A DNA stretch of 64,000 bases from a virus, in the IMG/VR virus record IMGVR_UViG_3300023196_002944, positions 8,655-72,654 of that record. One strand, given 5' to 3'. Below are positions 7,069 through 60,947 of this stretch, in pieces. Positions within the stretch are counted from its first letter, which is position 1. The number at the start of each line of letters is the position of its first letter. The notes beneath the pieces were generated by a model. That model saw nothing but the letters and a program-made list of their open reading frames with translations. It was not told the DNA's origin and did not search any database. A program made the translations under genes and the position numbers.

Positions 7069-7547
7069 TTTCGCGGTACGTACTGACCAAGTGGGAAGTC
7101 GTGCTTGCAGGCTCGGATGCCATCCCCACGCGTCGGCCGGCAGTCTTCGGCCATGCTAAATTAGGCGAGGCGCACATGGATGTGTACACGCCATTTTTTG
7201 AAAAGAACATGGAGGTGGGGCACGATGCCTTATTGGTGTTTGTTCGCGCAGAACAGATTGTGATCGACGCCATTGAAGCGGATACAGCCAAGTGCCTCGT
7301 ACTGCCCATCGATCACAAGACGCAAAAGTATGACATCAATGCCTCGCAGCCTGCGAACATCAATCGGGTGAGGTCGTTCCTGAATGCGCGGGGGATTGAA
7401 AACCAGCATCTCAGTGAACTTGGCGGGCTCAAAGATGGGCTGTTCGTCCGCAAGGTGATCGACATCCTTCATGGCTTGAAGGGGGATACAAACAAGATGC
7501 CTCACATGAAGCGGTTCTTCGGGGCGTATGCAGGTGAGGATGTCTGA
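7038..7547 (+). CDS. Hypothetical protein (possible fibre chaperone)
   Basis: 169-aa ORF filling the gap after the large fibre gene; TGATG coupling downstream. Confidence 0.55.
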   Translation: MEDHDRSGQLISRYVLTKWEVVLAGSDAIPTRRPAVFGHAKLGEAHMDVYTPFFEKNMEVGHDALLVFVRAEQIVIDAIEADTAKCLVLPIDHKTQKYDINASQPANINRVRSFLNARGIENQHLSELGGLKDGLFVRKVIDILHGLKGDTNKMPHMKRFFGAYAGEDV

Positions 7548-8467
7548 TGCCTGCTCTTGGTCGGTACCCTATCGCCACGGCGCACTTTGCCAAGGAGCCT
7601 ACTCTTGGCCCCGCCCCTCCAGTGCTTCTCACGCTGAACGCTTTAATCGACGTCGGCATCGATCTGTACAAGCTGACGTGGGAGACGCTATCTGCCACGG
7701 TGACTACAGCGGCAGACGTCGTGACGTTCAAGTTTGTGTCTGTTGCGCTGACGGCTGCAGCTACGACTGTTACAGCGGCGCTCTCCCGGTCCTATCTATT
7801 GATCAAGTCTGCCGTGGTGACTACAACAGCCACCATGACCAAGATCGCAGATTTTCTACGGGTGCTTTCAGCGTCAGTCACGACGACAGCGACAGCCTTG
7901 AAGCATATTACATTCAATGCCCTCGTCGCCGCAGTGACAGCAGCGGCTTCGACGGGGGTGGCTCGGACCCTGCTGCTATCACTGACAGCAGTAGCGACAG
8001 CTACTGCTGTCCTATTCCGTATGATATCCATGACCTTGGCAGCGGCAGCAACTGTAGTGTCTACCTTGGTTAAACGCGTGGGCAAGGTTCTGATAGTTAC
8101 AGTTAGTGCAGCGGCATCTGTCTTCCGGCAGATGTACCGAATACTCACGTCTTCGGTTACTGCTACGGCGATTCAGGTGAAGATTGATCTGTTCCGCATC
8201 CTGTCAGCTACGGTGAATACCGTGGCCACGTTAGGGAAACCTCTCATCACCAAGATTTTCTATACTCCTGTACGGAAGACGGCGACGTTGACTCGCCATA
8301 TTACCCAATCGCTGTACGCTGCAGTAAGTGCTACTATAACGGGGACTTGGGAGTTTATGTCGCCTCACAACCCGAGGTACCGAACCATTGTGAAGCGTTG
8401 TGTAGTGGAGACACGTCTGGTAGCGAAGCGTCTTAGGACGATTATTCGCCCGCGTGGAAATGGGTAA
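7547..8467 (+). CDS. Third T/A/V-rich repeat protein
   Basis: Same repeat type (RVLSASVTTTATALKHI) and a basic C-terminal motif shared with 1..1278. Confidence 0.72.
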   Translation: MPALGRYPIATAHFAKEPTLGPAPPVLLTLNALIDVGIDLYKLTWETLSATVTTAADVVTFKFVSVALTAAATTVTAALSRSYLLIKSAVVTTTATMTKIADFLRVLSASVTTTATALKHITFNALVAAVTAAASTGVARTLLLSLTAVATATAVLFRMISMTLAAAATVVSTLVKRVGKVLIVTVSAAASVFRQMYRILTSSVTATAIQVKIDLFRILSATVNTVATLGKPLITKIFYTPVRKTATLTRHITQSLYAAVSATITGTWEFMSPHNPRYRTIVKRCVVETRLVAKRLRTIIRPRGNG

Positions 8468-15486: not shown

Positions 15487-15517
15487 GCCCCCGGCCAAAG
15501 TGGCCGGGGGCACTTTC
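15487..15517 (+). terminator. Probable intrinsic terminator after the capsid genes
   Basis: gcccccggcca-aag-tggccgggggc (11-bp stem) followed by a weak T-tract actttc; may be leaky. Confidence 0.7.
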
Positions 15518-34200: not shown

Positions 34201-36537
34201 GTGATCACGACCCGCGACACCATGCCTGACAAAATCTATGACGAATTCCGCAACCAGAACGAAATGTTCGATGAGGTATACAACCGACTGCGTGGACGGA
34301 TGGGCCAATTCCAAGAGGGGCAGGTGTCTTACTTTGCAGATGGCGGGCGTAGCGGCCCAGTCGTAGGTCGCGTGGACGAAGTGACGGCGCGGAGTCGTGT
34401 CTTCGCCATGGCATTCAGTGGAGCCAAGAACGTATGGAAGGATACGCGAGGATTCATTGCTGAGATTTATGACCGCTACATTCGGTGGGCGAACCGCTCA
34501 CTGTGGTTGCAGAAGAACTCAGATGGCAAGATCATCAAGGCCATTCGCGCTTTCGGGTTGCAGTGGTCTGATATGCCCGGCCACGCCCGTGGTGATCGTC
34601 ACCCAGTGACGGGGGAGTGGCATGACAACGTAGTCTTCATCACCCGTGCTGATGGCCGAGTGGAGACAGTCAAGATCGGTGATGAAACAATCAAGCATTC
34701 CATTGACCGGGAACGCGGCCAGTGGGTCGAGCTTAAACTGACAAAGTTGTTAGAAGAGCATGGCAATACCGAACAGCACGATCAGGTGCTGAAGTATCTG
34801 CAGTCTGAGACGCCACTAAGCAGCATTCGCAATGCTGAAGTACGTGCACATGTCTCAGCGTTCCGTGATTATCTGGATTCCTTTTACGACGACTACATCG
34901 GTGCGATGTACGAAAGCCGTCAGGGCAGCGGTGCCCCGGTGGAGTATGGCATCAAACGGTGGAATGCGAATTACTTCCCTCGCGTCCTCGACCCCCAGAT
35001 TCTGATGGAGAACAGGGATGAATTCATCACCGACGTAGTGACAAAACTCGGGTTCACACGTCAGGGAGCCGAGGAATTGTGGCAGTCGTACATGGGCAAC
35101 GACAATGTTGACGCGTGGTTCGATCCTGACCGCACCTTTGCTCCGGGCAACCCCCAAGGCAAGAGTCGTCAGCAGCAGTTGGCCGACGCCGCACCGGTGC
35201 TGGAGAAGTACATGGCGAAGAGCATGACCCACGTCATGCAGAGCTACATGCACGCCATGATCAAACGGGTTGAGTACGAGCGCCGGTATGGTGGCGTGGC
35301 CATGACTGAAGCAGGCACGCCGTACTGGGATCACGATGTAGGGTTCCAACGCTTGATGCGGCTGGCGAATGAAGAGGGCGCGTCGGCCGCGCAGTTAAAA
35401 TGGTGGTCTGAAGTGAAGGAAGGTTACCTTGGCCGTTTGGGTCAGGATATCCCGCCTGCGCTGCGCCGGTTCTACTCCCTGACGCAGACGTTTCTGAACT
35501 TCCTGTTGCTGCCGTTCGCCACGCTGTCATCGTTCGTCGATCTTGCCAATGTGATCGTGCGGTCCAACGGTTCGGTGACCTTCAGCCTTACTCACCTTCG
35601 TGATGCTTTCAAGGCCGTGCGTGAGAAAGGCGACAACGAGCTATGGAAGCTGGCCCAGACTCATGGTTTGGTGGTCGACAATGTCATGCATTCAGTGCTG
35701 GCTGAACGATTTGATACGGGGTATATGACCCCTATCTACCAGAAAATGAACGAGAAATTCTTCCGCTGGATCGGATTGCACCAGTGGACGGCCGCGATGC
35801 GCATGTATTCGTGGCAGATGGGCAAGGATTTTCTCCATAAACACGCTACAAACCGTACGGAGTATGGCGATAGCTACCTTACAGAACTGAATCTCAAGGC
35901 CGAGGATGTCCTGAACTGGTTCCATGAAGGCCAGAAGACGTGGCAGGTGACTCCGGGGGCTGAGAACGATGCTCTGGCCCGCAAAGTGACTATTGCCCTG
36001 AATCGGTTCGTCTCGGAGTCCATATTTCGCCCTGACGCCTCTCAGCGGCCGAAGTGGGCCTCTGACCCACACTGGATGCTTGTATGGCACCTGAAGCAGT
36101 TTGGCTACTCATTCTGGGCCAATCTGGTGCATCGGTTGATCGATGTAGCCAAGACGAGGCCCGGAACGCTGGCTAAAATGGCCGCATTCCTACCTTTGCT
36201 GGCCGTTCTGCCGTTTGCCATGGTAGGCATGGAGTTGCGGAATATAATCCAGTACGGAGCATCTGACGAGACCCCTTACAACCATCAGAGGGGAGCGGCT
36301 GGGTACATGGCCGAGCTAGTAGAGCGGTCAGGCGCTCTGGGGCCAATGCAGTTCCTCTGGGATGCCATGGAGTCACAGGAGCGAGGTAAGCTCTTCATCC
36401 TGTCTTTGCTTGGGCCTGCCGCGACAATGACAGAAACAGCACTCACCAAGGAACTCAGCACGGTTATCCCTCGCTTCACACCGGGGATTTCGGTGATGCC
36501 TCCCTTGCGGCACTGGCTGACAGAGCAGGTGCAATAA
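25207..36537 (+). CDS. Giant (3776 aa) putative ejection/polyvalent protein with SNase-like, SLOG-like and two HExxH metallopeptidase-like domains
   Basis: Last gene of the virion module, RBS gagg. Motifs: IDADTI...RLFGVGASE...GR...NLNARLIEEGLA; SGGAIGSD...RRN...GGTG...KPV; AHEFGH...EWYAD; AHEMAH...EEWFAD; Gly/Ala hydrophobic helices at about aa 150-460. Confidence 0.8.
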   Translation: MANDRRFSATNALTPRTIDADTIDLRGRRHRLFGVGASEMSTASGREATRRASEFLSRPGVTTRTHGTGYFGRALSEAIGPDGENLNARLIEEGLAISRDYTGVGNIYPDATAKSRREGEVPSRAAQFLEARAAQRGDVATKFDEKYVPPEATVTQALGVGVRSGVDSLQAGAYGMASALASIISPPADQQPSDDSAIERFGRRKRNDFENGFIRNSIEASQVHVAQSLKELTEGEDTTFGDWARWAAFNVGVGAPSLVAMAATSGTGFAAGAGLRALSLGVARSLTKKGMSRATAKQMSKGIMTNLPKYGARMGAMMGSGVPQGGQIYETVKNDYGVDSVGTALTTAVITGGLDVVGLEYVLRGLLPDPKKYLSESIAVNLAKMMAGSSARGILAEAPVEALQEVTALVAEGIHDPDELIMEKLTSEEGRWRILEAAAAGAVFGGVFGGSGGVMSYGLQGLPTKQKKAKTPAPDAPPPDAPPPAIEPPDAPPPAGAPPAGAPPAGAPPIGIVSPGEGPPPDDGVPPIGVDPRNPTAPPIGLTPTEEGRPAPETVEVSERATDVEGKHTFSKPREAMEFAKNVKKLYPAAQVKQTRLEVEVKFPIDEAPTDTGVDPRAAKPTEAPTTTSPVAETPAPEAPKTEAPVAAPVEFNEGDKKRGHKTKQEDHEVALADGSRHVVKGRTVVPPEGFEDVRLIVHKIVGGKEWKVTELETGYGIGGTSATMKEAVANAKKKLKDVGRTEFDLAFARTQEKIAGKEAPKTEAPKTEAPKVPRTPEEFKAQQEQRRVESQERAEKEIAEVEAAGGKARKSKGGDKRGIMEFADRDKFVAYLKGKGREDFIIENILRGQSGPFTHLMEYAQTEHFTAKPAAKPAAKPAAKPAAKPAAKSEVKFLSNEDKDALIAVEGVVSKLPQVLRSRIVNVVAKSLGIGAINEGQVIEWANRTYGTNFNIEAKPSDVKKPAAKSEPHEADPGVNPRARPAKAPVTTAPRRAPSNQGAKGRAARKRRNEAARQTAPATSQEAAPLHKVAPASVAAGTPGIAYSGGAIGSDSVWSAALADKDVPTVHMSFAGHSINKNARGQRVELTPEQLTEADAAYRRARGRLNRSGKPSTDFATNLQRRNYFQVRDADAVYAVGELIIDKRGAVSGGTGYAVEYAVQMDKPVFLFDQKQNRWFSITKGAQNNVVKPAEVTRLEGDTVALIGTRKISKQAKEVIYTLVDNTYSVDRGNAPGPTDAMADGVAPEDAGVGPIQKDTPAVIAVMNRLNSLFGKVELSDGAYGKGLIAAVSKHLLTDAANAKGILTVVEEYTQNFVTDHIFDSPKALIGVPLIGLDAQFFSSQFATWNRSNTFEKLNKAFPMNRNRMVSINTRPEYSLHESSDLRYRDTYVFELRKPDAREFRLTKLARSWANMLGLKRYAKQITVTLRDPEDSRDDAYLWGIYGMAYTNEAIIYINPTLLDPAVLKDNAALKGVLAHEFGHLVHRAVIDGMLETAEGDYFTLLKEMRQSYRTFAGLKRGSGVVTDGLTDRANKLMDEFNGLQSALVAGTLNDAEFAAALKQLTPFIDTVSQQRGFVASQEVVDTLRVERGQTLARTPAMTSFILAVQNGDPITDAMRESALSDAQDTVKNFISSYIISQPEWYADQIGAWLNTKEEPKTVLERFFAGLAAAIKKLFGQAPQTSADFAGKPPVNSVQKFMDSLLATSRPIKSKPKKHVFNQQAEAVLDAIIEEIERDPVAKIAVTTVLEGDVTRIGPKRSIEWLRNRLKLIFDGTNAEIENAIWGAFYIVSMGDMYNELTRNDPQTDWVPGEDLIVADDDGGKGSPWRTGFVSVINNIRGKHGQVAGIDVGFSLKSIFPSGYDNKGMGALVNNPRRLRSVVGGMLPTGYYNALSVALEQARLKIQAAPEYNAQAERIYKSFLINKRGLQRDSENPNIIHVPVSPMLFDALDTKHKAKIDQFIAEQQQWAKDNNVETAMTRESLMDPQGLNQLFLTYNPDMQQKRQDGTMEDRAWTFSLRTHQGTELAWVWHENRHRLFQQVFDSMIDQAKSYAKNKLDTADEAHYLQTTLQFLAPAKTTLNSKGEEVHTPPQPIDLGVRVLAQYGRSFDGGQRRGIESPQRHVLNQERYLANGITALLDNGYVLLNDRTMPDGKGTKLVPQVVTDKMGTRFRADLIVGYGTGIRTARRLSDALKAVQRESKLHDEAAWIERSIERSMERVAGLKGKVAQYKRIKARAKSIASAKPKLKTAMDRQLRKAETAITNEMEAVFTILHDEETPYSAALKEGMDKVTMEFLETDDMIALRNEAMQRLQAAQAENKRVDIGAQLIENRVGQAELHSIYEGIKTKLETLAGIVDVTTDEVAKATHAYNESNTKANLDKLMKARAHQGLAILRQMQQVDPDTITDEFIEQTIQSDAFLGTTRLYEFKPETKRQKAEVKERVIDMQRTRSAATLALHKFRDDVGNALKKRLIELDHKLATMTGVANGLVQWASQNGILIEDLEAEGQITVDDDKKVSAAFKELQKHEARVQSLQAKVDGMNAVVTPPAKLAEASAQLREAQEHREAAFADATVQRRGKRVLDMRALETAYGKAAGAYTIAKRKALSELQVYLVENDIDTGVDAESTLISQMSIPYEIQRLQRMRREYIRVTQIDAFRHASIPLLDQKIAGITTQLESLYLLNSMRVSEIRNLMPLNRVLRSRLASLKREGAPFWNGQMAIDEEAEAVAALHEEVAEHEQYGMDVVDHNLAQTETEAGMTFSTDVALDPDTGNPLAIQRFREPRQLGSLAFENGFLPENTTKGKGARKTVTNPMLETIQAIYRVSGLDRFGIDFNFGFNEKEGMPSQVTIWTEPGMREHKRKIEVTIRIDPALKDNPEAMIRDIAHEMAHVTKDALLGVEESKNSVVWKKLMKGYKQYAADWKGEGPAPIFEEWFADRFAAWLVDSTMRGRKSTIKNDPKTVVGKFMRRLGDTIKSILKISNPKKSEEDVVYEFLDMLAVITTRDTMPDKIYDEFRNQNEMFDEVYNRLRGRMGQFQEGQVSYFADGGRSGPVVGRVDEVTARSRVFAMAFSGAKNVWKDTRGFIAEIYDRYIRWANRSLWLQKNSDGKIIKAIRAFGLQWSDMPGHARGDRHPVTGEWHDNVVFITRADGRVETVKIGDETIKHSIDRERGQWVELKLTKLLEEHGNTEQHDQVLKYLQSETPLSSIRNAEVRAHVSAFRDYLDSFYDDYIGAMYESRQGSGAPVEYGIKRWNANYFPRVLDPQILMENRDEFITDVVTKLGFTRQGAEELWQSYMGNDNVDAWFDPDRTFAPGNPQGKSRQQQLADAAPVLEKYMAKSMTHVMQSYMHAMIKRVEYERRYGGVAMTEAGTPYWDHDVGFQRLMRLANEEGASAAQLKWWSEVKEGYLGRLGQDIPPALRRFYSLTQTFLNFLLLPFATLSSFVDLANVIVRSNGSVTFSLTHLRDAFKAVREKGDNELWKLAQTHGLVVDNVMHSVLAERFDTGYMTPIYQKMNEKFFRWIGLHQWTAAMRMYSWQMGKDFLHKHATNRTEYGDSYLTELNLKAEDVLNWFHEGQKTWQVTPGAENDALARKVTIALNRFVSESIFRPDASQRPKWASDPHWMLVWHLKQFGYSFWANLVHRLIDVAKTRPGTLAKMAAFLPLLAVLPFAMVGMELRNIIQYGASDETPYNHQRGAAGYMAELVERSGALGPMQFLWDAMESQERGKLFILSLLGPAATMTETALTKELSTVIPRFTPGISVMPPLRHWLTEQVQ
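26629..26733 (+). repeat. Pro-rich coding repeats (DAPPP / AGAPP, 15-nt units)
   Basis: gatgccccgccgcct three times and gctggtgcgccgcc three times. Confidence 0.85.
27481..27522 (+). repeat. 15-bp tandem repeat (EAPKT)
   Basis: gaagctccgaagacc twice plus a partial third copy. Confidence 0.85.
27808..27873 (+). repeat. Perfect 12-bp tandem repeat (AKPA x5.5)
   Basis: gcgaagcctgct five times plus gcgaag. Confidence 0.92.
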
Positions 36538-44761: not shown

Positions 44762-45810
44762 ATGTTGCCTCCGGTGTTTTGGTTAAACCCCCATTCGTAT
44801 TGCATTACGCATTTCTCTTCAAGATCACTTAGAAAATCGTCATAGTCAAATCCAAGTGTAGAATAGATGTATTCAGCAGCGGCATCTGATTCATACTTGA
44901 GAAGTTCAGCAATGAGTTCTAGGTGTTCAACACGAGTTCGATCACGAATGGGTTTTGGTAGTGATTTAGTAGTTGCTGTTTTTGGTAACTGGCTTTCATA
45001 GCCAAAACCGTCGCGTGCACTGCCATAACTGTAAGTATAACGGTAGTTGTCTTCGGATGGATTACGTTTGACAGGAAGTTCATGCCATTTTATATCGATC
45101 AGTTTGTCGGTGAGTTGCACAAGGTATTCTACATTAAGGTGTTCGAATTTGCTGTGTTCCTCGTAGTATCCAATACTGATGTTGCTGCATTCGGGGACTA
45201 AGTGAACGTAGTTGGCGGTGTCAGTGAATGAACCAGTAGCAGGAGAGTGGCCCATATCTAGCTGTTTTGCCAAGGCATAGGCCCATTCTTGTGAACAGCA
45301 GACACCTGTCATTTGGCTGGTAATGATGTCTTTGGTGCCTTTGCGGTCGAATGCCAGAATCATATCAATGTCTTCTAACAGTTCGGGATTGAATTCAGCG
45401 ATTGCATCGCTGCCAATACCTCCCATTTCTTCTCCGACGTGGAATATGTATTGTCCCGGTACGTTGTACTTGATCAGCATTAACATGATCCATACACCTG
45501 CGCCGTCATCAGCACCTAAAACTCCCCCGTCGTGGTTAAAGATGGTGCAGGTGTCTTTGACTACAGCCAGTTGGTGACGAGTGTCTTTGTTGTGAACGGT
45601 ATCAAGATGGCAGGAAAAAGCATTGCGGTAATTTTCACCAATGCTGATTAGACGGTTGCCTGTACTATCAACAATGCATCCGGGGATTGGATCAATCCAG
45701 TCTTCTGCAAGTTGTGACTCATGTCTGCCGTTGTAAGGGCGTCCTGTGGAAAGAATGTTAAACAACGCAGGAACATTCAGTTCATATTTGGTGGGGGATA
45801 GTATTCTCAT
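44758..45810 (-). CDS. M28/M20-like Zn metallopeptidase/hydrolase
   Basis: CHLDTVH, LGADDGAG, GEEMGGIGS, FDRKG, FTD, NISIGYYEEH. Confidence 0.85.
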   Translation of the reverse strand: MRILSPTKYELNVPALFNILSTGRPYNGRHESQLAEDWIDPIPGCIVDSTGNRLISIGENYRNAFSCHLDTVHNKDTRHQLAVVKDTCTIFNHDGGVLGADDGAGVWIMLMLIKYNVPGQYIFHVGEEMGGIGSDAIAEFNPELLEDIDMILAFDRKGTKDIITSQMTGVCCSQEWAYALAKQLDMGHSPATGSFTDTANYVHLVPECSNISIGYYEEHSKFEHLNVEYLVQLTDKLIDIKWHELPVKRNPSEDNYRYTYSYGSARDGFGYESQLPKTATTKSLPKPIRDRTRVEHLELIAELLKYESDAAAEYIYSTLGFDYDDFLSDLEEKCVMQYEWGFNQNTGGNI

Positions 45811-48029
45811 CAGGCAACAACCTCTTCTGCTGTGGGTTCAATGGGCTCTGCATTGTCTTCCATGGCTTCATCGATTAGAGATTGAAGGCGCTTAAATTTA
45901 TCGAGAGTGAGATAGAATTCAATAGCATGAATAGACGTGATAACAGAATCACAGGTGTAAGGTAAGTTTTCTGGCTTACAAGGTTCAGTTCGATTTTCTT
46001 TACATGCTTTGAGGTATGAATAGACGATGTACTTATGTAGGGACTGGGTGATTTCAAGGGCGGGACAATTACATGAATCAAGAATATCAGCACCCATTAA
46101 AGAATTCGACAAGAATGAAGAGAAGTAAGTGTCGAGGGGAGTAATTGCCAGAGGTTGCGTACGATAGATGTCTTCGCTCACGTTGAAGTAGTGAGCAGAA
46201 TCAGTTTTGATGCATTTTACATCTTCTCCGTTAAATAGAAGGTCTGCGCAGAAGTGAAGGAGTGGTTCTGGGCGATCTGTGAATTCGGCTTCTTCTATAA
46301 AATCCATATCGCAGACAGCGAGTTTGCCGCCATCAACAGGGCCGATGATCATATCTTCATTTATAATATCACTGGTAAGCATGAATGTGACATCACCAGA
46401 ATCATTAAGAACAGGAAAGGCTTCATCATTCGGGATGTATTCACCGGAGATATCTTCAAGGAGATCATCTGCTCTCATGTAGTCGTCGTTATATTCACAG
46501 TACAGAAACCCGTTGTTTATGGCGGCTTCGTAGTTAACAAAGAATTGGTCTTGGCATTCTGATTTGACAAGGTCTTCATTGTTAATTTCGACCCAAGAAG
46601 TCCAGCCGTGTAAGTTGTGGGCCTCTACGAAGTAATTATCTATACATGACTGACATACATCTGTTCCGGTATGAATCGTAGTAAACTCGATATCACGGCG
46701 TTCTTCACACCATTCACAATACCGCCCTTGGTCAAAATGTGCATAGCCTTGTGTGGCGTCTGCATCAATTGTTTGCATATCTTCCATACTATCGTTAGAA
46801 GGTATAAACCATTCACCATCTGAGTCTTCTACTATGCCAAAAGCGTAGCAGAAGCCGTCAATATAAGGGAATACATAGGAGCCGCTACAGTAGTCGCCGT
46901 TATCAATGGCAGCAAGGCGACAACCATTTAAAGCTCTTTCGTTGTATCTGTAACCTAAGTCTTTTAGTAAACGACTGAGTACGCCTTCATCGCCATAAAC
47001 GCGGCCAAATACTTTATCATTTTTGTTAACTACAGCGCGTGCTGAATATCCCCTACTTCCGTTTTGGCGGCGTAAAGCAACAACGGTAGTATCAGGTGAG
47101 AAGTAGACGCGAGAGGGGTGGCAAACAGTTTCGAAGGTATGTGATCCATCCATGCAAGAACTGGGGCCGTCTTGGTAGATTTCTTCTGCGTCATCAGAAC
47201 TTTCTGCGAAGAAAAGACGTTGCATTGCTATGTCGGCTGTGAATGAAGCAACGGCGTCTTTGATTTGCTCATTATCCATAAATGGGAATTCACGTGAAAG
47301 ATACCGTCCCGGTCGTATGCTCAGTTGGCGATCTCCAATAAGATATTGGAGGTTGGGAGTATAGGCGATATTCTCCGGTTTGTTGCGTGCACGATGAACG
47401 AAGTGAGACGGCATTGTAGGAAAACAGGAAGGTGGCACCATGTCGATTAAACCAAGTGCTGACCGAAGATTTTCTCGGTGCATGGGCCAGTGATTACTCA
47501 TCTGGTTTTTTCCGATTATTCTACGGATGTAATAACCGATGTTGTGTGGGCGAGTAAAGGTGTCACTGGGGAAAAAGGCTGCAACGTATGGCAAAATGCT
47601 TCCTGTATTATTTAATACTGGAATAATTGATTTTAACATGTCAGGAGCCGTTTCCATGTTTGTTTCTTTCATAACTTTGATAGCACATTGTTCAAATTGA
47701 TCCATCATGGAATTTATATCTGAAGCAAGAGGGGATTCAAGTGCACTTAGAAGGGCGTACAGAGTATTTTCCCATGTGTGTTGATGAGCAAGAGCTACTA
47801 AAAGAGCGTGGTGATAGTTTCGATTGCGATCTGATTGGTCGCGGGGAGGCTCTCCATTGAATGAATCTAGTTCAATGACAGAAGAATCGTAGTCGGGAAG
47901 ATAAGGAACGAGACCGGATCGGATTATCGAATGTTCTTTGGGTATGAATCTGAGTGTTAGGTGCGAGAAAACTGGGCCGAGGAAGCCAACTGTCCAGAGA
48001 AGAAAGCGATGTTTACTATTGATTTTCAT
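45810..48029 (-). CDS. Large phage hypothetical protein with an SCM/ARA/RVYG/PYID core and a Cys-rich acidic region
   Basis: 739 aa with GPSSCM, YSARAVV, FGRVYGD, FPYIDG, CEWC, CQSC; translationally coupled to the peptidase. Confidence 0.7.
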   Translation of the reverse strand: MKINSKHRFLLWTVGFLGPVFSHLTLRFIPKEHSIIRSGLVPYLPDYDSSVIELDSFNGEPPRDQSDRNRNYHHALLVALAHQHTWENTLYALLSALESPLASDINSMMDQFEQCAIKVMKETNMETAPDMLKSIIPVLNNTGSILPYVAAFFPSDTFTRPHNIGYYIRRIIGKNQMSNHWPMHRENLRSALGLIDMVPPSCFPTMPSHFVHRARNKPENIAYTPNLQYLIGDRQLSIRPGRYLSREFPFMDNEQIKDAVASFTADIAMQRLFFAESSDDAEEIYQDGPSSCMDGSHTFETVCHPSRVYFSPDTTVVALRRQNGSRGYSARAVVNKNDKVFGRVYGDEGVLSRLLKDLGYRYNERALNGCRLAAIDNGDYCSGSYVFPYIDGFCYAFGIVEDSDGEWFIPSNDSMEDMQTIDADATQGYAHFDQGRYCEWCEERRDIEFTTIHTGTDVCQSCIDNYFVEAHNLHGWTSWVEINNEDLVKSECQDQFFVNYEAAINNGFLYCEYNDDYMRADDLLEDISGEYIPNDEAFPVLNDSGDVTFMLTSDIINEDMIIGPVDGGKLAVCDMDFIEEAEFTDRPEPLLHFCADLLFNGEDVKCIKTDSAHYFNVSEDIYRTQPLAITPLDTYFSSFLSNSLMGADILDSCNCPALEITQSLHKYIVYSYLKACKENRTEPCKPENLPYTCDSVITSIHAIEFYLTLDKFKRLQSLIDEAMEDNAEPIEPTAEEVVA

Positions 48030-48031
48030 GT

Positions 48032-48190
48032 TTAGTGTTCTCGTTTGATGGGTATATCTTTGTCATCAATGTTTTTGCTGATAGTATCTGCAATGTCGTG
48101 CAGTTTGTCTGCCAAGTCCTCCTTATCATCAGCATGTACAGTAATATCCAGTTTTAGTCGTCGTCGTTTTTGCTTTTTCTCGTCAGTCAT
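48032..48190 (-). CDS. 52-aa hypothetical protein (not in the ORF track)
   Basis: MTDEKKQKRRRLKLDITVHADDKEDLADKLHDIADTISKNIDDKDIPIKREH*; fills the gap between neighbours. Confidence 0.6.
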   Translation of the reverse strand: MTDEKKQKRRRLKLDITVHADDKEDLADKLHDIADTISKNIDDKDIPIKREH

Positions 48191-49028
48191 GTGTGTGTCT
48201 TCCGGCAAGCCCGTAGGGTGTGGTTATACCTGCTGCTTTCAGGCACGTGGTTGTGGGTTCGTGGAAATGTGGGCATTTCCATTGGCTGTAAATATTACGA
48301 CAAGTAAGTGGGAACGAAACATTTTTGTAGATGTTGTTGGTGTGACGATAGTGGTGGCCGAGACTGAGAAATTCGGGGGTCGCATCGGCTGCTAGATAGG
48401 CATTAGATGCGTAAGCACGAGCAGTTGCGTAACGATTTTCCCAGTCTGGATCATTGCGTTTGTTTTGGAACCAGCGAATGAAATCGCATCGCATTAATTC
48501 GTCTTGATGTATGGTCATAGGTTCAAATGGTGCTACAGGGATGACTGAAGCTGAAGGGGATGGAAGTGATTTCATAAACTCACGTATCCAGTAAGGTTCT
48601 GAATACACAACTGGTTGGGCGTAAAGCATTACAATATGCGGGATGTCGATGCGAGGGTAGACATTTAGCCCGCGCCGATGTCCTTCTTCCCATTTGAAGT
48701 AGTAGTGACGCCCGCCACTGGGGGTTTTTGTGTACTTGAACCAGAGCCACGGGATGCGGGAGATTGGCCTGAAGTCTTTGTTGACGGGAGTGTCAAAGTC
48801 GATGACGGTGATGCCGCTGGCTTTGCCGGTGAGGACGCAGTAGTGGCCTGTGTCGAATTTGGTGATGCTGCTCCAGAGTTCTTCTGGACTTGGTGGCTCC
48901 TGCTGATAGTGTTTCCAGCGGATTGCTGGCCTTTTTTCTTGTCTGATCGCTGGGAGAATGATCCATTTTTCCCTGAAGATTTTACGCCGGATGTACTCGC
49001 CATCGATGGGTGTGAGGTGGTCTGCCAT
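48183..49028 (-). CDS. Bifunctional primase-polymerase (Prim-Pol) with a Cys-rich C-terminal domain
   Basis: KRPAIRWK, TGKASGITVIDFD, TPSGGRHYYF; C-terminal C...PLTC...C...C; RBS ggagag. Confidence 0.82.
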   Translation of the reverse strand: MADHLTPIDGEYIRRKIFREKWIILPAIRQEKRPAIRWKHYQQEPPSPEELWSSITKFDTGHYCVLTGKASGITVIDFDTPVNKDFRPISRIPWLWFKYTKTPSGGRHYYFKWEEGHRRGLNVYPRIDIPHIVMLYAQPVVYSEPYWIREFMKSLPSPSASVIPVAPFEPMTIHQDELMRCDFIRWFQNKRNDPDWENRYATARAYASNAYLAADATPEFLSLGHHYRHTNNIYKNVSFPLTCRNIYSQWKCPHFHEPTTTCLKAAGITTPYGLAGRHTHD

Positions 49029-49600
49029 GATTTTCTCTCCGGCAAGGCTTCAGCTACGACCAAGGAGTCGAAGGGATTAGTTGCTGCGGGTTTGCTTGTG
49101 ATAACCAATTCATCATCCTCTGCTGAGAGGAATCCCAGCGGTTCGTTGGTTTTGGTGTCGAAGAGGGCACCGCAGTCGATGCAGATGGACACATCTTTTA
49201 GGAACTCGGGTGGGTTGGGGGGAATCATGAGATTGTGGGGACAAGGAGGTGTCTCTGGTTCTACTGCAGGTTCGAAGACAATTTCCACCTCTTCCTCATC
49301 GTTGTCATCATCAACGAGTGCGATAGGAGGGGGAAAATCGATAGACTCTCCTGCGAGTCCGAAAAGAGCAGCACCGTCGACGTAATGGTCAATGTTGGTT
49401 TTCTCCCCTCGGGAACGTGCCATTTTTACGCAGACCATGAACATCCAGCCTTCTTCTTCAGTGAGTTTGTGTTCACTGTAAGCATTGAAGATGGCAACAG
49501 TGCGTTTCATGCTGCGTTCAGCGTGGATGTCGCGCTCGGCAGCGCGGTCTTCAATTTGATCGCCTGCAATTTCGAGGATGGTAAAGGCTGATGTCTTCAT
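48665..49600 (-). CDS. DUF6378-like protein with a long C-terminal extension overlapping Prim-Pol
   Basis: DRAAERD...ERSM...GWMFMVCVKMAR...DHYVDGAALFGLAGE; the last ~120 aa overlap Prim-Pol in another frame. Confidence 0.7.
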   Translation of the reverse strand: MKTSAFTILEIAGDQIEDRAAERDIHAERSMKRTVAIFNAYSEHKLTEEEGWMFMVCVKMARSRGEKTNIDHYVDGAALFGLAGESIDFPPPIALVDDDNDEEEVEIVFEPAVEPETPPCPHNLMIPPNPPEFLKDVSICIDCGALFDTKTNEPLGFLSAEDDELVITSKPAATNPFDSLVVAEALPERKSWQTTSHPSMASTSGVKSSGKNGSFSQRSDKKKGQQSAGNTISRSHQVQKNSGAASPNSTQATTASSPAKPAASPSSTLTLPSTKTSGQSPASRGSGSSTQKPPVAGVTTTSNGKKDIGAG

Positions 49601-54029: not shown

Positions 54030-54049
54030 GTGAGCAATCACTAACTTGG

Positions 54050-54540
54050 GTTTATTATATTCGAATATTAAGAGGTGCTTTTATAGGTGGGGCGGTTCAG
54101 CCTGCGAGGAAAAACGGTTACGGTGGTACAGTGCTTCGCTAAGTGCTTGATCGATCAACAATGTTACAGGGAAACAGGGAGACTAGGCTTAAGTTACACT
54201 TATGTTACACTTTTTATTCTTATAAGTATATGAATTATATACTATGTTACACTTATATAGTTATATTGTAAGTTAATTAGTATTAACCGGGGAATACATA
54301 AAAACTGTAATGTAAGGGTCTAGTGTGTGCTACGTCCCCACCGGGGGGAAATCGCAGATTCACTACCTTTTTAACTACGTATGTGTAACTTACCTTTGGA
54401 ATCAAAGGCTTAGAAGAGAAATAAGTGTAACAAAAGGGCTAAAAAAGTGTAACATGTTACACTTTTTTGTGTAACATGCTAAATGTCATCTCCGTGGAGA
54501 CGGATTTCGGGCTGGTAGGTGCGCGCCAATGTTACACATC
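54050..54540. other. Putative replication origin: AT-rich region with TGTTACAC/GTGTAACA iterons and a 28-bp palindrome
   Basis: Repeats at about 54162, 54193, 54203, 54245, 54383, 54425, 54447, 54455, 54469, 54530; perfect palindrome aaaaaagtgtaacatgttacactttttt at 54441-54468; directly upstream of the primase-helicase. Confidence 0.78.
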
Positions 54541-56472: not shown

Positions 56473-56687
56473 GATTTCACCGCAGGTAGGAGGTCTTCAG
56501 GTAATACGCCGTTGGTGCGTAGTACGGCATGAGCAAACATGTCGGTGGGGGTGAACTCATAGATGCCAGCGTGCCGCGCCATTATCATTTTGCGCAGGTG
56601 ATCGATGGTGAGATCGACATATTCTTTGTTCATAAACACGGGAGCGTTCATCGATATGACGGGCGTTTTATTTGCAGTATCTGTCAT
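56469..56687 (-). CDS. Hypothetical protein
   Basis: 72 aa, directly downstream of the polymerase. Confidence 0.55.
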   Translation of the reverse strand: MTDTANKTPVISMNAPVFMNKEYVDLTIDHLRKMIMARHAGIYEFTPTDMFAHAVLRTNGVLPEDLLPAVKS

Positions 56688-58521
56688 CGTATTCAGCCTC
56701 GGCGTCGAGTGGGAGATCAGGGCACCAATTGGGTGGTGTTCTCATGACTTCTAGTTTGAACTCTTTTGCTTCTTCAACGTATTCTTCACGCACCAGTGAA
56801 CTCACTTCATCATGTGTGTTCATGACGATCTTGAGTTCCCATTCTGGTTTGGCTTCAACCTCAATGATGGCGGTGTGCCATTTTACGACGATGAATGCTA
56901 GTGCTTGGATGATGTTCTCAATTAGTTTGGCACCATAGATGTCAATCTCTGCACCGTTGTATTTATATTTGTAGACGCCTTCAGGTGTGATTTCAGGGTA
57001 AGACAGGCACAAACCGTTTGGGAGAATGATCTTGTCTTTGGTGATGGTGTAGCACTTGTATTGGATGTAGTGGGCTCTGGTGGCGCTAAGGATGCCACGG
57101 ATATAACCATCAGCCATTCGCCAACTTCCGACGATGGCACGACGTAGCTGACGATATAAGTGGACAACATTCTGCCCAAATACCTCATCGATGTGGATGT
57201 GAGGCATGCCAAACTTAATGGCGTTGTAGTTCACGGTGTGGGTGAATTTGACGTAGCCAACACCATAACCAAGCGAGAGTTCTGCTTGCTTGCCTATGAA
57301 TCGCTCATCTGGATTGCCCTTCTTAGTGAGTGACATGTCATCGAAGATGCGTTTGGCTAACTCTAGGTATGGGTCACCACCACGACGGAAGATGTCAAGT
57401 AGAGGCAGTTCGCCCGCATGCCATGCATTGAGGCGACATTCAATCTGGCTTTCATCAGCCGTGAGGAACTTGAATCCGGGCGGGGCTGTGAGTGTGTGAC
57501 GCAGTCCACTGTTGTTGTCGAGGTTTTGTGGGTTTGATTTGTTACCACCTCCCAGCCTTCCAGTACGAGCATTGTTATGATTGTACCCAATAGGAAGGCG
57601 ACCAGTAGGCCCAGAAGCGTCGAAAATGAAACGAGCGGTTCTAGTTCTTGTTTGTGTTGATTTGCTTTCAATGCGGGCCTCCATGATGTCAGCGATTTCA
57701 GGCATCTCTTGTAGTTCTTGAAACCCAACATCAGATTTAGCAAAGGCCGGAACCATCTTTTCTTGTTTGTCACTCCATTTGAGTGGTACTTCAACACCAA
57801 TGGATTCAAGTAGGGTAGCGAACTTGATGTTGCTCGACAGTATTTTCTCATCGATGTTTAGTTCTTTGAACATCGCTTGCTTACGTGTTTCATCGGTTGA
57901 ACGTATTTGTTCAGCGAGTTCTTTGTTCAGTACGATGGCTGGATCAGTGAAGCAGCGCAGGATGATGTCGATGAATACCTTATCTTCATCTGGGATGAGG
58001 TCAATCATGTCATCGTAGGCTGTACCACAACCAAACGTGTCAGATATGCAGTAGAGGCCGAGCATTTTGCGTTGTTGAGGCGTGGGGTTGTGCACACCTC
58101 GCAAGCTGGTGAGTGCGGCGCGGTGTTCTTTGCCTTTGTGGCCCAGTCTCTTGAGTAGACTGTCGAGGTCATTGCGTTGGTGAAAGTATAGTGATCTGGC
58201 CATACCAAGTGTGCAGTGGTATGCCTTGGCGATGATGTTCAGCAGTTCAGTGAGTATTAGTCCGTCAAAGAGGTTGTTGTGGGCGACCATCAGTGTGTCG
58301 TCCCAATCAGTGAGGGGCAGTAGTTGTTCGCGTAACTCCCCCGGCGTTCCTTCGTACCATACTGGCATTCCATGGTTGATGGCCACGCCAACACCGAAGA
58401 TTTCAAACTCAGGGTGTCTTATGTACTCGGTATAGCTAAGGGTGGACAGAGTGCAGCCGGGGCCGTAGTACGATTCAAAGTCAACGATTGCTAGGTTGGT
58501 TGGTGGTGTCCATAGGTCCAT
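56668..58521 (-). CDS. Family A DNA polymerase with 3'-5' exonuclease domain
   Basis: VDFES, AHNNLFD, YCISD (Exo I-III); RTGR, NPQNL; motif A ADESQIECR; motif B RFIGKQAELSLGYG; motif C THDE. Confidence 0.93.
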   Translation of the reverse strand: MDLWTPPTNLAIVDFESYYGPGCTLSTLSYTEYIRHPEFEIFGVGVAINHGMPVWYEGTPGELREQLLPLTDWDDTLMVAHNNLFDGLILTELLNIIAKAYHCTLGMARSLYFHQRNDLDSLLKRLGHKGKEHRAALTSLRGVHNPTPQQRKMLGLYCISDTFGCGTAYDDMIDLIPDEDKVFIDIILRCFTDPAIVLNKELAEQIRSTDETRKQAMFKELNIDEKILSSNIKFATLLESIGVEVPLKWSDKQEKMVPAFAKSDVGFQELQEMPEIADIMEARIESKSTQTRTRTARFIFDASGPTGRLPIGYNHNNARTGRLGGGNKSNPQNLDNNSGLRHTLTAPPGFKFLTADESQIECRLNAWHAGELPLLDIFRRGGDPYLELAKRIFDDMSLTKKGNPDERFIGKQAELSLGYGVGYVKFTHTVNYNAIKFGMPHIHIDEVFGQNVVHLYRQLRRAIVGSWRMADGYIRGILSATRAHYIQYKCYTITKDKIILPNGLCLSYPEITPEGVYKYKYNGAEIDIYGAKLIENIIQALAFIVVKWHTAIIEVEAKPEWELKIVMNTHDEVSSLVREEYVEEAKEFKLEVMRTPPNWCPDLPLDAEAEYDDRYCK

Positions 58522-58534
58522 TGTTCATCCCCTT

Positions 58535-58585
58535 TACGCCCACGAGATATCATCCGGCCCCGCCCGGCCGCAGGCCGGGCGGGGC
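58535..58585 (-). promoter_or_regulatory. Conserved hairpin element copy A (upstream of the DNA polymerase)
   Basis: Plus strand tacgcccacgagatatcatccg + gccccgcccggcc-gca-ggccgggcggggc (perfect 13-bp stem). Confidence 0.7.
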
Positions 58586-58637
58586 ATAACTATAGACTGT
58601 GTCGTCCTCTAGCCCCATGCAGTGAGCCCCCCGACAC

Positions 58638-58692
58638 AAAAAAAGCCCGATCCCGCCACCTTGTTGCGAACATGGCAGCGTTGGGATCGGGT
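58638..58692 (-). terminator. Intrinsic terminator after 58708..58941
   Basis: cccgatccc...gggatcggg outer stem with A7 on the plus-strand 5' side (U-tract on the minus strand). Confidence 0.7.
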
Positions 58693-58707
58693 GGGGCCAA
58701 ATTGGGG

Positions 58708-58941
58708 TCAGCGAAGGTAACTGATTAGAACAGACTCTTCAATCTGGAGACGGCAGATGTCGAGGTAGACGACAGACATGCGCTCTTTAACGACGGTAAC
58801 TTCGTTGTGATCTTTACCATAAGCAGCGATGTTCATAGCCTTTTCACATTCTAGAAGTTCGAATTCACCCAGCTTGGTGAGTAGTTGTGTGCGTACTTGG
58901 GCCAGTTCTTCCGATGTGGTTGTGATGGGGTCAGGGGACAT
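58708..58941 (-). CDS. Hypothetical protein
   Basis: 77 aa, RBS gaggt. Confidence 0.6.
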   Translation of the reverse strand: MSPDPITTTSEELAQVRTQLLTKLGEFELLECEKAMNIAAYGKDHNEVTVVKERMSVVYLDICRLQIEESVLISYLR

Positions 58942-58950
58942 GATTACCTC

Positions 58951-59160
58951 TTAGAGCCGAATGCACTTCAGCTTGATGGTAACTTCGCGGCTGACGGTTA
59001 CGGCAGTGAAGTCGTCAGTCCAGATGAGCCGACCTTGCCCATTGGCAAGCAGCCAGCGTGATATCTCAGTGTGCGTTGCCGCCAAAGAGATGAATATCCC
59101 AGTGCCACCGTGAACGCGGGGGTTGTGGGATGTGATGATCAGTTCGATGGCAGGTGTCAT
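58951..59160 (-). CDS. Hypothetical protein
   Basis: 69 aa, RBS ggag, ATGA coupling. Confidence 0.55.
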   Translation of the reverse strand: MTPAIELIITSHNPRVHGGTGIFISLAATHTEISRWLLANGQGRLIWTDDFTAVTVSREVTIKLKCIRL

Positions 59161-59366
59161 GCTTTTATCTCCCCAACTCGGCGCGGTTGTTCTCCACGCT
59201 CGTGTCGAATGATTACAACTTTGACGCAGTGAGGTTGAGTCACCAGTGTGAAAGCAGCCGTGGATGCTGCACCTACTAGTGATGGATGCTGCGTGAGGTA
59301 GGTGACTTGTGTGCCATCAGCCATGTATTCACGTAAGCGCCAATGAATCTTCGCTTTAAGTGCCAT
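59157..59366 (-). CDS. Hypothetical protein
   Basis: Start MALKAKIHW with RBS ggagg. Confidence 0.55.
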   Translation of the reverse strand: MALKAKIHWRLREYMADGTQVTYLTQHPSLVGAASTAAFTLVTQPHCVKVVIIRHERGEQPRRVGEIKA

Positions 59367-59569
59367 TGAAGCCTCCAAGGGAGCAAGGTGCCTCGTCACA
59401 TCGTCCCCCTGTCTCGGAGTACGACGTTGAAGAATGCAAGGAAACAAAGGGTTGTGGGGTAAGTAAGCAGTCACTAACCAAACTAGGCAACGCCGTACTG
59501 GGCGACTGAGCCAAAGACAGCCCAATCAAACACTGAAACCCTCATCCCCATGCAGTGACCCAGGGGCGT

Positions 59570-59607
59570 AAAAAAGGGGAGGATGGACCGTTAGGTCCAT
59601 CCTCCCC
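59570..59607 (-). terminator. Strong intrinsic terminator after 59624..60064
   Basis: ggggaggatggacc-gtta-ggtccatcctcccc (14-bp stem) with A6 on the plus-strand 5' side. Confidence 0.85.
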
Positions 59608-59623
59608 GGTGCCCGAGCGAAAG

Positions 59624-60064
59624 CTACTTGCTTACGCCGACCTCGGCCTCGCGGCGTGGGTTGATGTAGGCACCGCGCATGAGGCGGAGGTTGATCACCT
59701 GAAGGTCGTTGATCTTGCCCTCACGCTTGGCACGCTGGCTGGTGCCGGTGTTGTCCCACCCGTTGAACGAGTAGGTCTCGTGCCGGCGATAGCCCTCGAC
59801 GTTGGCGCTGAACTTCAGCGACAACGTGTGGTCGATGTCCTTGTCGCCTTCGTAGGCGACGAGGGCACCTTCGGCCACGATGGCACCATCGGGGGTGGAC
59901 ACGATCACGGTGGCGTCGTCGTAGTACCACGCACGCAGTTCCTCGTCGTTGGACTGCATCGAACGCATCGGCCCGGTGGCCACTGTGCCCGCTGCGAGGT
60001 CATCGCGGTGGAAGAGGGCGATTGAACCAGAGTTGTCGTAAACGGTGGGTGTGGACTCGCTCAT
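59624..60064 (-). CDS. First gene of the leftward block; hypothetical beta-rich protein (possibly nucleic-acid binding)
   Basis: 146 aa, RBS ggag, GC3-rich codons, own terminator; YDNSGSIALF N-terminus. Confidence 0.7.
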   Translation of the reverse strand: MSESTPTVYDNSGSIALFHRDDLAAGTVATGPMRSMQSNDEELRAWYYDDATVIVSTPDGAIVAEGALVAYEGDKDIDHTLSLKFSANVEGYRRHETYSFNGWDNTGTSQRAKREGKINDLQVINLRLMRGAYINPRREAEVGVSK

Positions 60065-60110
60065 GAGTGTATCTCCATAGAGTGGTCAATGGCGTAGACG
60101 GCCAACCCGC

Positions 60111-60161
60111 TACGCTCACGACACCTCATCCGGCCTCCCGCGACCGCAGGGCGCGGGAGGC
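60111..60161 (-). promoter_or_regulatory. Conserved hairpin element copy B (upstream of the first leftward gene)
   Basis: Plus strand tacgctcacgacacctcatccg + gcctcccgcgacc-gca-gggcgcgggaggc (12 of 13 bp paired). Confidence 0.7.
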
Positions 60162-60318
60162 AGGGACTAGGACACTGGGCAGTGCCTCTCTACGGTAGCT
60201 CGGTGATCGAAGGCAGGGGGGTAGGGGGGTACCCCCGCGCGTGAGGATGGAATCTTTAGGGAGGTATGGTACCCAGAAATATGCCGCCCTCCTTTTTGAA
60301 TCTCCTATAGAGAAACCA

Positions 60319-60347
60319 TTGACAGGCTCTGTCTCCCAGTCCATAAT
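60319..60347 (+). promoter_or_regulatory. sigma70-type promoter for the rightward block
   Basis: TTGACA (60319-60324), 17-nt spacer, CATAAT (60342-60347). Confidence 0.8.
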
Positions 60348-60524
60348 CTCTCTATGGTTACTTCCGCCGCTTCCCAGTCTCCCTGTCTCCACGCGCCTCG
60401 TCTCCACGTCCAGCGTTTCACCGTTCCGATGCATCCATGCCGGCGTAAATCCGACGTGCCTGCGCCCAAAATTTTCCGGGTATTTTCAAACCCATGAGCA
60501 TCCACGTAAATTGAGGATTAAAAG

Positions 60525-60947
60525 ATGAGCGATACCAAACCCGACCCCGACCCTGACATGGTTCAGGAAGGCCACATGCCTCCGGTAGAAATCGTCGACG
60601 CGGCCATCATGCTGGCGGCGTACTTCAAGGAGAAGGATGTTGAGCATTGGCGGCTCTGCGGGTGCCGGTCAGACAACGACGACAGCACGGACCCGAGCCT
60701 AGAACGCGCCGTGCAGGTGGTAAGGAACTACCTCGCGGAGAATGAAGACGAGGATGAAGAGTTCTACCGGAAGTTGGGTGTCGTCAGCAGTGAGATGCAC
60801 GACAGCTACAAGGAATGGATGGAAAAAGCCTTCGGTGAGCAGCGTTTTGACAACGATATCCTGCGGCTCAGGATCAACAAGTCAGCCGCTGCGGCGGCGC
60901 TGGACGTGTTCGACAAGCTGCGGGCCAAAGATGCGGCGGGACGATGA
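60525..60947 (+). CDS. Hypothetical protein (shares an N-terminal domain with 61726..62100)
   Basis: RBS gagga; PPVEIVDAAIMLAAYFKEKDVEHWRLCGCRS. Confidence 0.7.
   Translation: MSDTKPDPDPDMVQEGHMPPVEIVDAAIMLAAYFKEKDVEHWRLCGCRSDNDDSTDPSLERAVQVVRNYLAENEDEDEEFYRKLGVVSSEMHDSYKEWMEKAFGEQRFDNDILRLRINKSAAAAALDVFDKLRAKDAAGR

Follow-up and report, generated by a model that had tools for sequence, protein, structure and literature searches.

Initiation that depends on a hairpin is known from very few systems, namely the virion RNA polymerase (vRNAP) of phage N4, the priming signals of RSF1010 and G4, and the single-strand promoters of conjugative plasmids. At promoters of the N4 type, hairpin extrusion depends on gyrase and the single-stranded DNA-binding protein SSB and occurs at the genome end entering first. 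Leader hairpins are common; in the nut sites of phage lambda, boxA lies 5' of boxB, a 5-bp hairpin with a 5-nucleotide (nt) loop. Here we describe a 57-nt hairpin element that is present as two copies, A and B, in a 64,000-nt stretch of viral DNA (hereafter the window), which comprises bases 8655-72654 of the 72,654-bp IMG/VR virus record IMGVR_UViG_3300023196_002944. The copies probably represent one strand-specific cis-element that marks the starts of two leftward expression units in the replication arm of this genome, with B heading the arm in its divergent control region, and we tentatively place its action in the 5' leader RNA of these units.

As described in PMC4496689 and PMC13037366, an N4 promoter is a template-strand hairpin with a stem of 5-7 bp and a 3-nt loop. 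The former gives the rule that the loop center lies at -11, where W129 stacks on -11G, and describes a G+C-rich heptamer at the loop with flanking inverted repeats whose variable bases need only pair (PMC4496689). The latter defines the d(C-GNA-G) class of mini-hairpins, in which d(GCGNAGC) has a melting temperature of 71 C for N = C, and presents RSF1010 ssiA as a single-stranded DNA signal of the 40-nt class with a CCGAAGG mini-hairpin apex, the RepB' protein contacting the tail and the first base pair and not the apex (PMC13037366). In phage HK022, according to PMC9378689, putL and putR are two similar structured RNAs of about 70 nt, each made up of two stem-loops with a bulge in stem I, which lie downstream of the early promoters and act on terminators at distances of up to at least 10 kb without any protein. 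The N4 genome itself (NC_008720) carries the P1 hairpin as GTTGC TTC GCAAC (90-102) and the P2 hairpin as GAAGC TCC GCTTC (559-571), the latter followed by TTTT and then GGATGAAG; hence, with the loop center at -11, P2 starts at the first G of GGATGA. The corresponding template-strand loops, GAA and GGA, both belong to the d(C-GNA-G) class.

The copies of the element described here, A at 58530-58586 and B at 60106-60162, were delimited by a repeat search (family D16) and align without gaps at 75% identity. On the + strand, copy A reads TACGCCCACGAGATATCATCCG (58535-58556) followed by the hairpin GCCCCGCCCGGCC GCA GGCCGGGCGGGGC (58557-58585), and copy B reads TACGCTCACGACACCTCATCCG (60111-60132) followed by GCCTCCCGCGACC GCA GGGCGCGGGAGGC (60133-60161). 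The arms of hairpin A occupy 58557-58569 and 58573-58585 and enclose a loop at 58570-58572, which is GCA on the + strand and UGC in a leftward RNA; all 13 pairs are Watson-Crick, the stem is 100% G+C, and the apex CCGCAGG spans 58568-58574. Hairpin B, with arms at 60133-60145 and 60149-60161, loop at 60146-60148 and the apex CCGCAGG at 60144-60150, forms 12 of 13 pairs, the mismatch being 60143/60151. Past the stem in the leftward sense comes a conserved tail on the - strand, CGGATGATATCTCGTGGGCGTAAAGGG in A (58530-58556) and CGGATGAGGTGTCGTGAGCGTAGCGGG in B (60106-60132), and the tail of A extends into the Shine-Dalgarno region that precedes the DNA polymerase ATG at 58521. The flanks of the two copies agree at 18 of 22 positions, or at 21 of 27 once extended to CCCnnTACGC. 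Identity is complete in the apex heptamer (7/7), in the three outer stem pairs and in the first seven tail bases, CGGATGA in the leftward sense, such that the stem base and tail start together read GGC CGGATGA, while the variable stem pairs are confined to mid-stem. A preliminary description of the stretch had noted two hairpins of like geometry with a conserved flank, and stem interiors that differ and yet keep their pairing (13/13 and 12/13); both copies are found where it had placed them, and only its figure for the flank, 19 identities over 23 nt, needs correction, as the flank it wrote out has 22 nt and 18 identities.

There are exactly two members of this element in the 72,654-bp record. 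Its flank pattern has two matches at up to 3 mismatches against 0.00 expected (100 shuffles), and the flank-plus-apex pattern has two exact matches and one chance match with 3 mismatches against 0.15 expected. Among all stems of 10 bp or more in the record, only A and B combine a length of 13 bp, a G+C content of 85% or higher and a GCA loop. We also ran a covariance model of A and B (R1) over the record with filters off, as the preliminary description had proposed for the full genome. Copy A scores 87 bits, copy B 84 bits and the next leftward match 14.6 bits; on the + strand, the palindromic stems of the two copies reach about 21 bits. The marginal match at 14.6 bits (E 0.069) is an 11-bp hairpin at 15487-15511 with 91% G+C, an AAG loop and no T-run, which follows an open reading frame (ORF) ending at 15478 and is the only other very G+C-rich hairpin of the record.

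The pairing of the stem is kept by compensatory change: 9 of its 13 pairs are invariant, 3 are altered on both sides and still pair, and one is lost in B, where the + strand has A.G and the leftward RNA C.U. By direct calculation, 8 random substitutions in the stem would keep at least 12 of 13 pairs with a probability of about 4e-5; the shuffle control on covariation is weak with only two sequences (52/500). Folded as DNA, the copies reach -22.0 (A) and -19.3 kcal/mol (B), with z-scores of -4.8 and -4.55 and none of 200 shuffles as good, and the hairpins alone folded as RNA reach -32.7 and -24.4 kcal/mol, respectively. An invariant apex, an invariant base with its adjoining tail and a co-varying middle make up the pattern of a hairpin that is recognized at its loop and at the junction with the single strand. 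The structure itself is real and unusually clean.

Both copies share the orientation of the genes downstream of them. The ATG of the DNA polymerase gene comes 34 nt after copy A, and that of the first leftward ORF (59624-60064) 67 nt after copy B, in keeping with the preliminary placement of each just upstream of a leftward gene. Reading leftward, the order is B, gene 1 (146 aa), terminator T1, three ORFs of about 70 aa, terminator T2, 52 nt, A, 34 nt, and the start of the DNA polymerase gene. T1 (59570-59607, - strand) follows gene 1 and has a 14-bp stem, a UAAC loop and six U, and T2 (58638-58691, - strand) follows the fourth small gene with a long stem and seven U in its fold, ending 52 nt before hairpin A. 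The element itself is no terminator, since T-runs follow A or B on neither strand. The bases past the stems are CGGATGA leftward and ATAACTA or AGGGACT rightward, and a terminator scan of 58300-60700 returns T1 and one weak site, neither of them a copy of the element; an intrinsic (rho-independent) terminator is therefore ruled out for this G+C hairpin, and the lack of a U-tract reported in the preliminary description extends to both strands. Behind each of the two terminators stands an exact 13-nt repeat, TCACTGCATGGGG in the leftward sense (CCCCATGCAGTGA on the + strand), at 58613-58625 after T2 and 59546-59558 after T1 (- strand), that is, 12-13 nt past their U-tracts, and a partial match to it, CACTGC, occurs upstream of hairpin B. 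This motif could be a promoter element for units without a hairpin.

The record has a CheckV completeness of 92% and a G+C content of 52.6%, and is classed as linear, terminal or end repeats not having been found in it. As a related contig of 72,237 bp exists, it is probably close to whole. Its two gene arms diverge at 60065-60524. The rightward arm begins with small ORFs and continues across the record ends to the small terminase, the large terminase and the structural genes; its final member is a 3776-aa ORF ending at 36537. The leftward arm (60064 down to 36603) has four small ORFs and then codes for a family A DNA polymerase, an exonuclease, a primase-like 792-aa protein, a Prim-Pol domain ORF, a helicase and a PD-(D/E)XK nuclease. 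The polymerase gene (56668-58521, - strand), which is the first gene past copy A, matches phrog_17 with E 1.1e-57, and PF00476 is found in its relatives. The nearest cultured phages are the Pseudomonas phages KPP25 and phiR18, with DNA polymerase identities of 34-35%, and a protein search recovers closer polymerases from the 72,237-bp contig (66%) and from a contig of 4,078 bp (63%). The product of the first leftward-arm gene (59624-60064, - strand; 146 aa) belongs to no family and has no homologue, a word-based search of 5.8 billion proteins having returned nothing but itself. At about 63% G+C this gene is richer than the record, and hairpin B and T1 bracket it like a self-contained cassette. 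No tRNA or tmRNA was found by the corresponding scan.

Searches outside the record indicate that the element is specific to a lineage that is represented by one genome here. The preliminary description had also proposed taking the covariance model to related phages. In 160 relative loci (1.78 Mb), whose best polymerase segments are at most 38% identical, model R1 with default filters gives one match at E 0.22 and nothing else at E <= 1, such that these distant loci lack the element; being confined to distant relatives, this negative is no fair test of the condition that the preliminary description had set for refutation, namely that relatives have no further copies. In viral contigs the flank pattern has 0 matches, the flank-plus-apex pattern has 3, none with a hairpin, and the apex-plus-CGGATGA pattern has at least 119, of which the best among those listed forms 6 of 11 stem pairs and none is a hairpin. 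The flank pattern has 11 matches in genome contigs of unrelated taxa, none beside a hairpin, and a blastn search of 58400-60400 against cultured phages gives no match.

The reading that we favor, if tentatively, is that A and B function within the 5' leader RNAs of the two leftward units, in antitermination or leader control; it would thus act as RNA, with the leftward strand as the functional one. The host RNA polymerase (RNAP) would transcribe the element into the 5' leader, where a factor, or the polymerase itself, would bind the stable hairpin together with the invariant tail starting with CGGAUGA. As a result, transcription might run through terminators of the T1/T2 type, as with nut and put sites, and/or the 5' end might be protected and access to the start region controlled. 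With no phage RNAP detectable, and with the rightward small genes served by a near-consensus promoter of the host type—a sigma-70-type TTGACA-17-CATAAT (60319-60347, + strand; 11/12 matches) 157 nt from hairpin B—the host enzyme is the likely transcriber. Moreover, two intrinsic terminators interrupt the arm between B and the replication genes; hence, either a read-through device or extra promoters are needed. The HK022 put sites offer a precedent, as there two short structured RNAs achieve this on their own. Like the put sites and the lambda nut sites, the element occurs twice in its genome in similar form, close to where early operons with terminators begin, has a structure kept by covariation and lacks a U-tract; it differs from both in that its two copies stand in tandem in one arm.

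Several observations weigh against this leader RNA element. No sigma-70 promoter with at least 8 of 12 matches lies upstream of A or B on the leftward strand; the best before B has 7/12, and before A there is a TATAGT three bases from the stem with a poor -35. Copy A lies downstream of T2, and the sole further notable terminator-like site in the arm is an A+T-rich hairpin at 54450-54481, such that the logic of antitermination fits B better than A. The described antiterminator RNAs are built differently: in place of the arrangement of put, the copies have in common one perfect 13-bp hairpin, the second downstream stems differing between A and B, and unlike in lambda nut the linear part lies 3' of the hairpin in the leftward RNA, with a 13-bp stem and a 3-nt loop. 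The C-GNA-G triloop is a special DNA motif on the template strand, whereas UGC is not notable as an RNA loop. Among the 25 formed stem pairs of A and B there is not a single G.U pair, and the covariation is that of two sequences from one genome. Rfam 15 yields 0 matches in the window at gathering thresholds, and even at E <= 5 only 8 weak matches on 58400-60400, all with 15-20 bits against thresholds of 35-70.

Should the leader RNA element be the correct reading, it would be a compact antitermination or leader device and a new sequence family in a large, almost unstudied environmental group of podovirus-like phages. A regulatory hairpin cassette at operon starts is of a known kind and would be categorically new only if the DNA-hairpin reading were right, though the element matches no curated RNA family in Rfam and no sequence in the collections searched. 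Since it consists of two short defined sequences, it is testable with reporter constructs or oligonucleotides. A reading of the opposite polarity, with the flank as promoter and the hairpin at the 5' end of a + strand RNA, finds by eye TTCATC-18-TATCAT (8/12) in A and a poor counterpart in B, and was set aside because A would then drive antisense RNA over four genes.

The readings in which the element is an initiation signal in single-stranded DNA, be it a promoter for an unseen RNAP or a site of the ssi type, are together possible but unlikely. We give a lower probability to the narrower proposition that such a hairpin is used by an enzyme invisible to sequence searches, either an RNAP lodged within the large polyvalent virion protein of 3776 aa or within an orphan ORF, or else the Prim-Pol of the phage serving as a site-specific starter. 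Doubtful to a further degree is a hairpin promoter of the N4 kind, at which the + strand would extrude or expose the GNA-capped hairpin and an unrecognized phage RNAP would bind the apex and the stem-tail junction and start at GGATGA. This was the headline proposal of the preliminary description, and a part of it stands. Both copies present a C-GCA-G apex on the template strand, with the tail on the 5' side of the apex, and like the N4 promoters P1-P3 they are template-strand hairpins in few copies with a 3-nt loop of the C-GNA-G class, an invariant G+C heptamer at the loop, and flanking inverted repeats that vary and co-vary. In both systems GGA follows the stem, and the GGATGA found here is identical to the start of P2, for which the statement in the preliminary description that N4 early transcripts begin with GGAUG holds in NC_008720. 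No host-type promoter lies upstream of either copy; their position, with A directly after a terminator and B at the head of the arm, is what would be expected of promoters, and the genome has a 3776-aa virion ORF and several large ORFs without an assigned function that might house the enzyme.

The geometry, however, departs from that of N4 in ways that the preliminary description had in part pointed out. The stem has 13 bp in both copies, outside the 5-7 bp of N4, and a start at GGATGA would put the loop center at -16 with 1 nt from stem to start, as opposed to -11 with a 4-nt single-stranded ruler. The loop center is a pyrimidine (C) in place of the purines G or A of N4, although the G and A of the sheared pair are present. 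The 27 conserved nt past the stem, which the N4 promoters lack, would all be transcribed, and the units concerned consist of replication genes, whereas those of N4 are left-end early genes. Further, this phage is not N4-like, no vRNAP homologue was detected in it, and KPP25 and phiR18 have no annotated RNAP.

No RNAP is recognizable at the sequence level anywhere in the record, which extends to the whole of it the remark in the preliminary description that no RNAP motifs are visible. The vRNAP profile phrog_2206, which N4 gp50 matches over residues 25-3499, and the RNAP profile phrog_414 have no match at E <= 10 in the six-frame record; neither has PF00940, the latter being uninformative because none of 14 control genomes gave a match to it. 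The 3776-aa ORF (25207-36537, + strand) is not significantly similar to gp50 by BLASTP (best E 0.09), lacks the D.D.D and DFDGD motifs, and finds no match among the PDB sequences, nor do its central 1801 aa in cultured phages. What it does contain is a DprA-like segment (1040-1175), an M48-type HEFGH at 1477, HExxH motifs at 2030 and 2885, Pro/Ala-rich repeats and a long helical region. Peptidase_M48 is its only Pfam domain, its C-terminus matches a virion structural PHROG, and its central 1821 aa resemble the LPD39 polyvalent-protein clusters (score 0.93). Judged by its primary structure, it looks like a large polyvalent virion protein and not an N4-type vRNAP.

The largest orphan ORF of the replication arm, which specifies a 739-aa protein (45810-48029, - strand), belongs to a large viral family with 2465 relatives in a representative library at E <= 0.001, mostly of 400-580 aa; no Pfam domain was found in the 50 members scanned. 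Its conserved core (180-560) has the invariant residues G288, S291, C292, Y309, R331, Y345 and D391 and a Cys4 cluster (438, 441, 459, 462). The AlphaFold model has a mean pLDDT (predicted local distance difference test score) of 69.7, with most of the core (181-550) above 85. Foldseek finds no match to this model in the PDB at E <= 0.001, and the best VIA-align match (Z 6.6 over residues 270-364) is a weak one to GNAT-like domains; no polymerase is among the best 50 VIA-align matches listed, which is a failure to detect and not an exclusion. This holds for the RNAP negatives as a whole, which are failures to detect rather than proof of absence. Should the DNA-hairpin reading prove true, hairpin-dependent initiation would have a second lineage, independent of the N4-like phages and outside them. 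A clear case in an unrelated phage with no recognizable polymerase would indicate either an enzyme yet to be discovered or a primase put to a new use. As matters stand, the alternatives that the preliminary description had listed beside its main proposal—a leader RNA, a processing site or a primase site—are together more likely than the N4-like promoter.

It is improbable, to a somewhat greater extent than the hairpin promoter, that the element serves solely in RNA processing or translation control, as an RNase III or RNase E site, a 5' stabilizer, or a control on a short upstream frame that begins at the AUG of CGGAUGA. Such an AUG lies 3 nt past the hairpin in both copies (58550-58552 and 60126-60128), with a G-rich Shine-Dalgarno-like run inside the 3' arm of the hairpin, and opens short leftward frames, read by eye. 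In B there are 22 codons, the last of which overlaps the start of gene 1 as ATGA; in A there are 20, and the frame runs past the polymerase start in a different register. In RNA folds of both leaders, CUAUGGA at the start region can also pair with the bases immediately before the hairpin. However, the two short frames differ mostly at second codon positions (by eye), and thus no conserved peptide results; the long-range pairing depends on the window chosen and in the case of B is lost in 3 of 8 choices; for RNase III, a perfect stem of 13 bp lies at the bottom of the usable range; and this reading would still need an upstream promoter, which was not found. An ORF of 102 aa (60126-60434, - strand), which crosses hairpin B and has the TGA of CGGATGA as its stop codon, is probably spurious.

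A lower probability again attaches to an ssi signal, in which the exposed + strand hairpin with its 5' tail would be recognized by a phage primase, either the Prim-Pol ORF (48183-49028) or the 792-aa primase-like protein, as RepB' recognizes ssiA of RSF1010. The element has the geometry of ssiA, with the + strand tail ...TCATCCG abutting the stem base and the apex CCGCAGG, and it shares with ssiA/ssiB the CCGNAGG mini-hairpin cap, the conserved 5' tail and the two copies. The ORF at 48183-49028 has an N-terminal Prim-Pol domain (E 8.7e-8; 33.2 bits against a cut-off of 22.8), and the 792-aa ORF has a primase-like segment. A candidate origin, A+T-rich and with GTGTAACA repeats, lies about 4 kb to the left, from where a rightward fork would expose the + strand as the lagging-strand template. 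Unlike ssiA/ssiB, the copies have a longer stem and stand directly before genes. In RSF1010 the two sites occupy opposite strands and lie inside oriV, whereas A and B share one strand, are separated by 1.6 kb and fall outside the candidate origin. The tight, gene-oriented placement of A and B before start codons points to gene expression and not to replication. No primase of the RepB' type was identified, although no search for the RepB' family was made, and we know of no double-stranded DNA podovirus described as needing ssi sites, which also counts against this reading.

That the copies serve as palindromic operators, bound as double strands by a dimeric phage protein, or are a duplication without function, is very unlikely: distant relatives do carry many lineage-specific perfect palindromes before genes of the same module, and this phage has a palindrome of its own, GTGTAACATGTTACAC, clustered at 54042-54478, yet 3 of the 4 variable stem positions are changed on both arms with pairing kept, which fits selection on a hairpin and neither a sequence-reading protein nor drift, and the asymmetric 27-nt tail lies outside any palindrome.

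The palindromes of the relatives form a distinct set of sites. In 16 of the 160 distant-relative loci, one lineage-specific perfect palindrome is repeated 3-10 times per locus. These are AACCTACA-N3-TGTAGGTT in loci L003, L005, L006, L008, L019, L087, L088 and L094; TAATCCCATGGGATTA in L034, L037, L038, L040, L041 and L066; TGTTAGGGA-N2/3-TCCCTAACA in L162; AGGGTTAC-N5-GTAACCCT in L117; GCTGAGA-N2-TCTCAGC in L105; and GTTATGCC-N2-GGCATAAC in L111, with L012 also among the palindrome-bearing loci. Most copies precede, by 0-20 nt, the ribosome-binding site of a gene on the same strand as the DNA polymerase, and some stand immediately ahead of a terminator. The arms do not change within a locus or between related loci; the 2-5 bases at the center do so freely, and both orientations occur. 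These palindromes look like operator or punctuation sites for a co-evolving phage protein. These podovirus-like contigs, whose DNA polymerases are 30-37% identical to the one described here, thus resemble our locus in having hairpin-capable inverted repeats upstream of ribosome-binding sites in the DNA polymerase module, with conserved sequence on the gene side. They differ in their invariant stem and free center, their 3-10 copies per locus and their A+T-richer arms of 7-10 bp, as opposed to the two copies, co-varying stem and invariant loop seen here, and model R1 matches none of them. That many relatives have a palindrome of their own before most genes of this module suggests that punctuation by hairpins or palindromes is a general feature of gene control in this group, one that is not known to have been described.

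Some further features of the window lie apart from the element. Between the exonuclease block and the gene for the 792-aa primase-like protein there is an A+T-rich intergenic gap of 430 bp (54042-54478). Of the 8 GTGTAACA sites in the window, against 1.6 expected, 6 fall in this gap and a seventh lies just outside it at 54530-54537; the gap also holds the palindrome GTGTAACATGTTACAC and, at 54450-54481, the hairpin that carries a T-run. The gap may be a replication origin or a cluster of operators. Further along the leftward arm (48183-49600, - strand), the ORFs 48665-49600 (DUF6378) and 48183-49028 (Prim-Pol) overlap by about 360 nt in different frames, and a frameshift is possible. On the + strand, two or three adjacent structural ORFs carry many in-frame repeats of about 54 nt (18 aa) at 1-3119 and 7547-8467 (families D1-D12), which are typical of fiber or decoration proteins.

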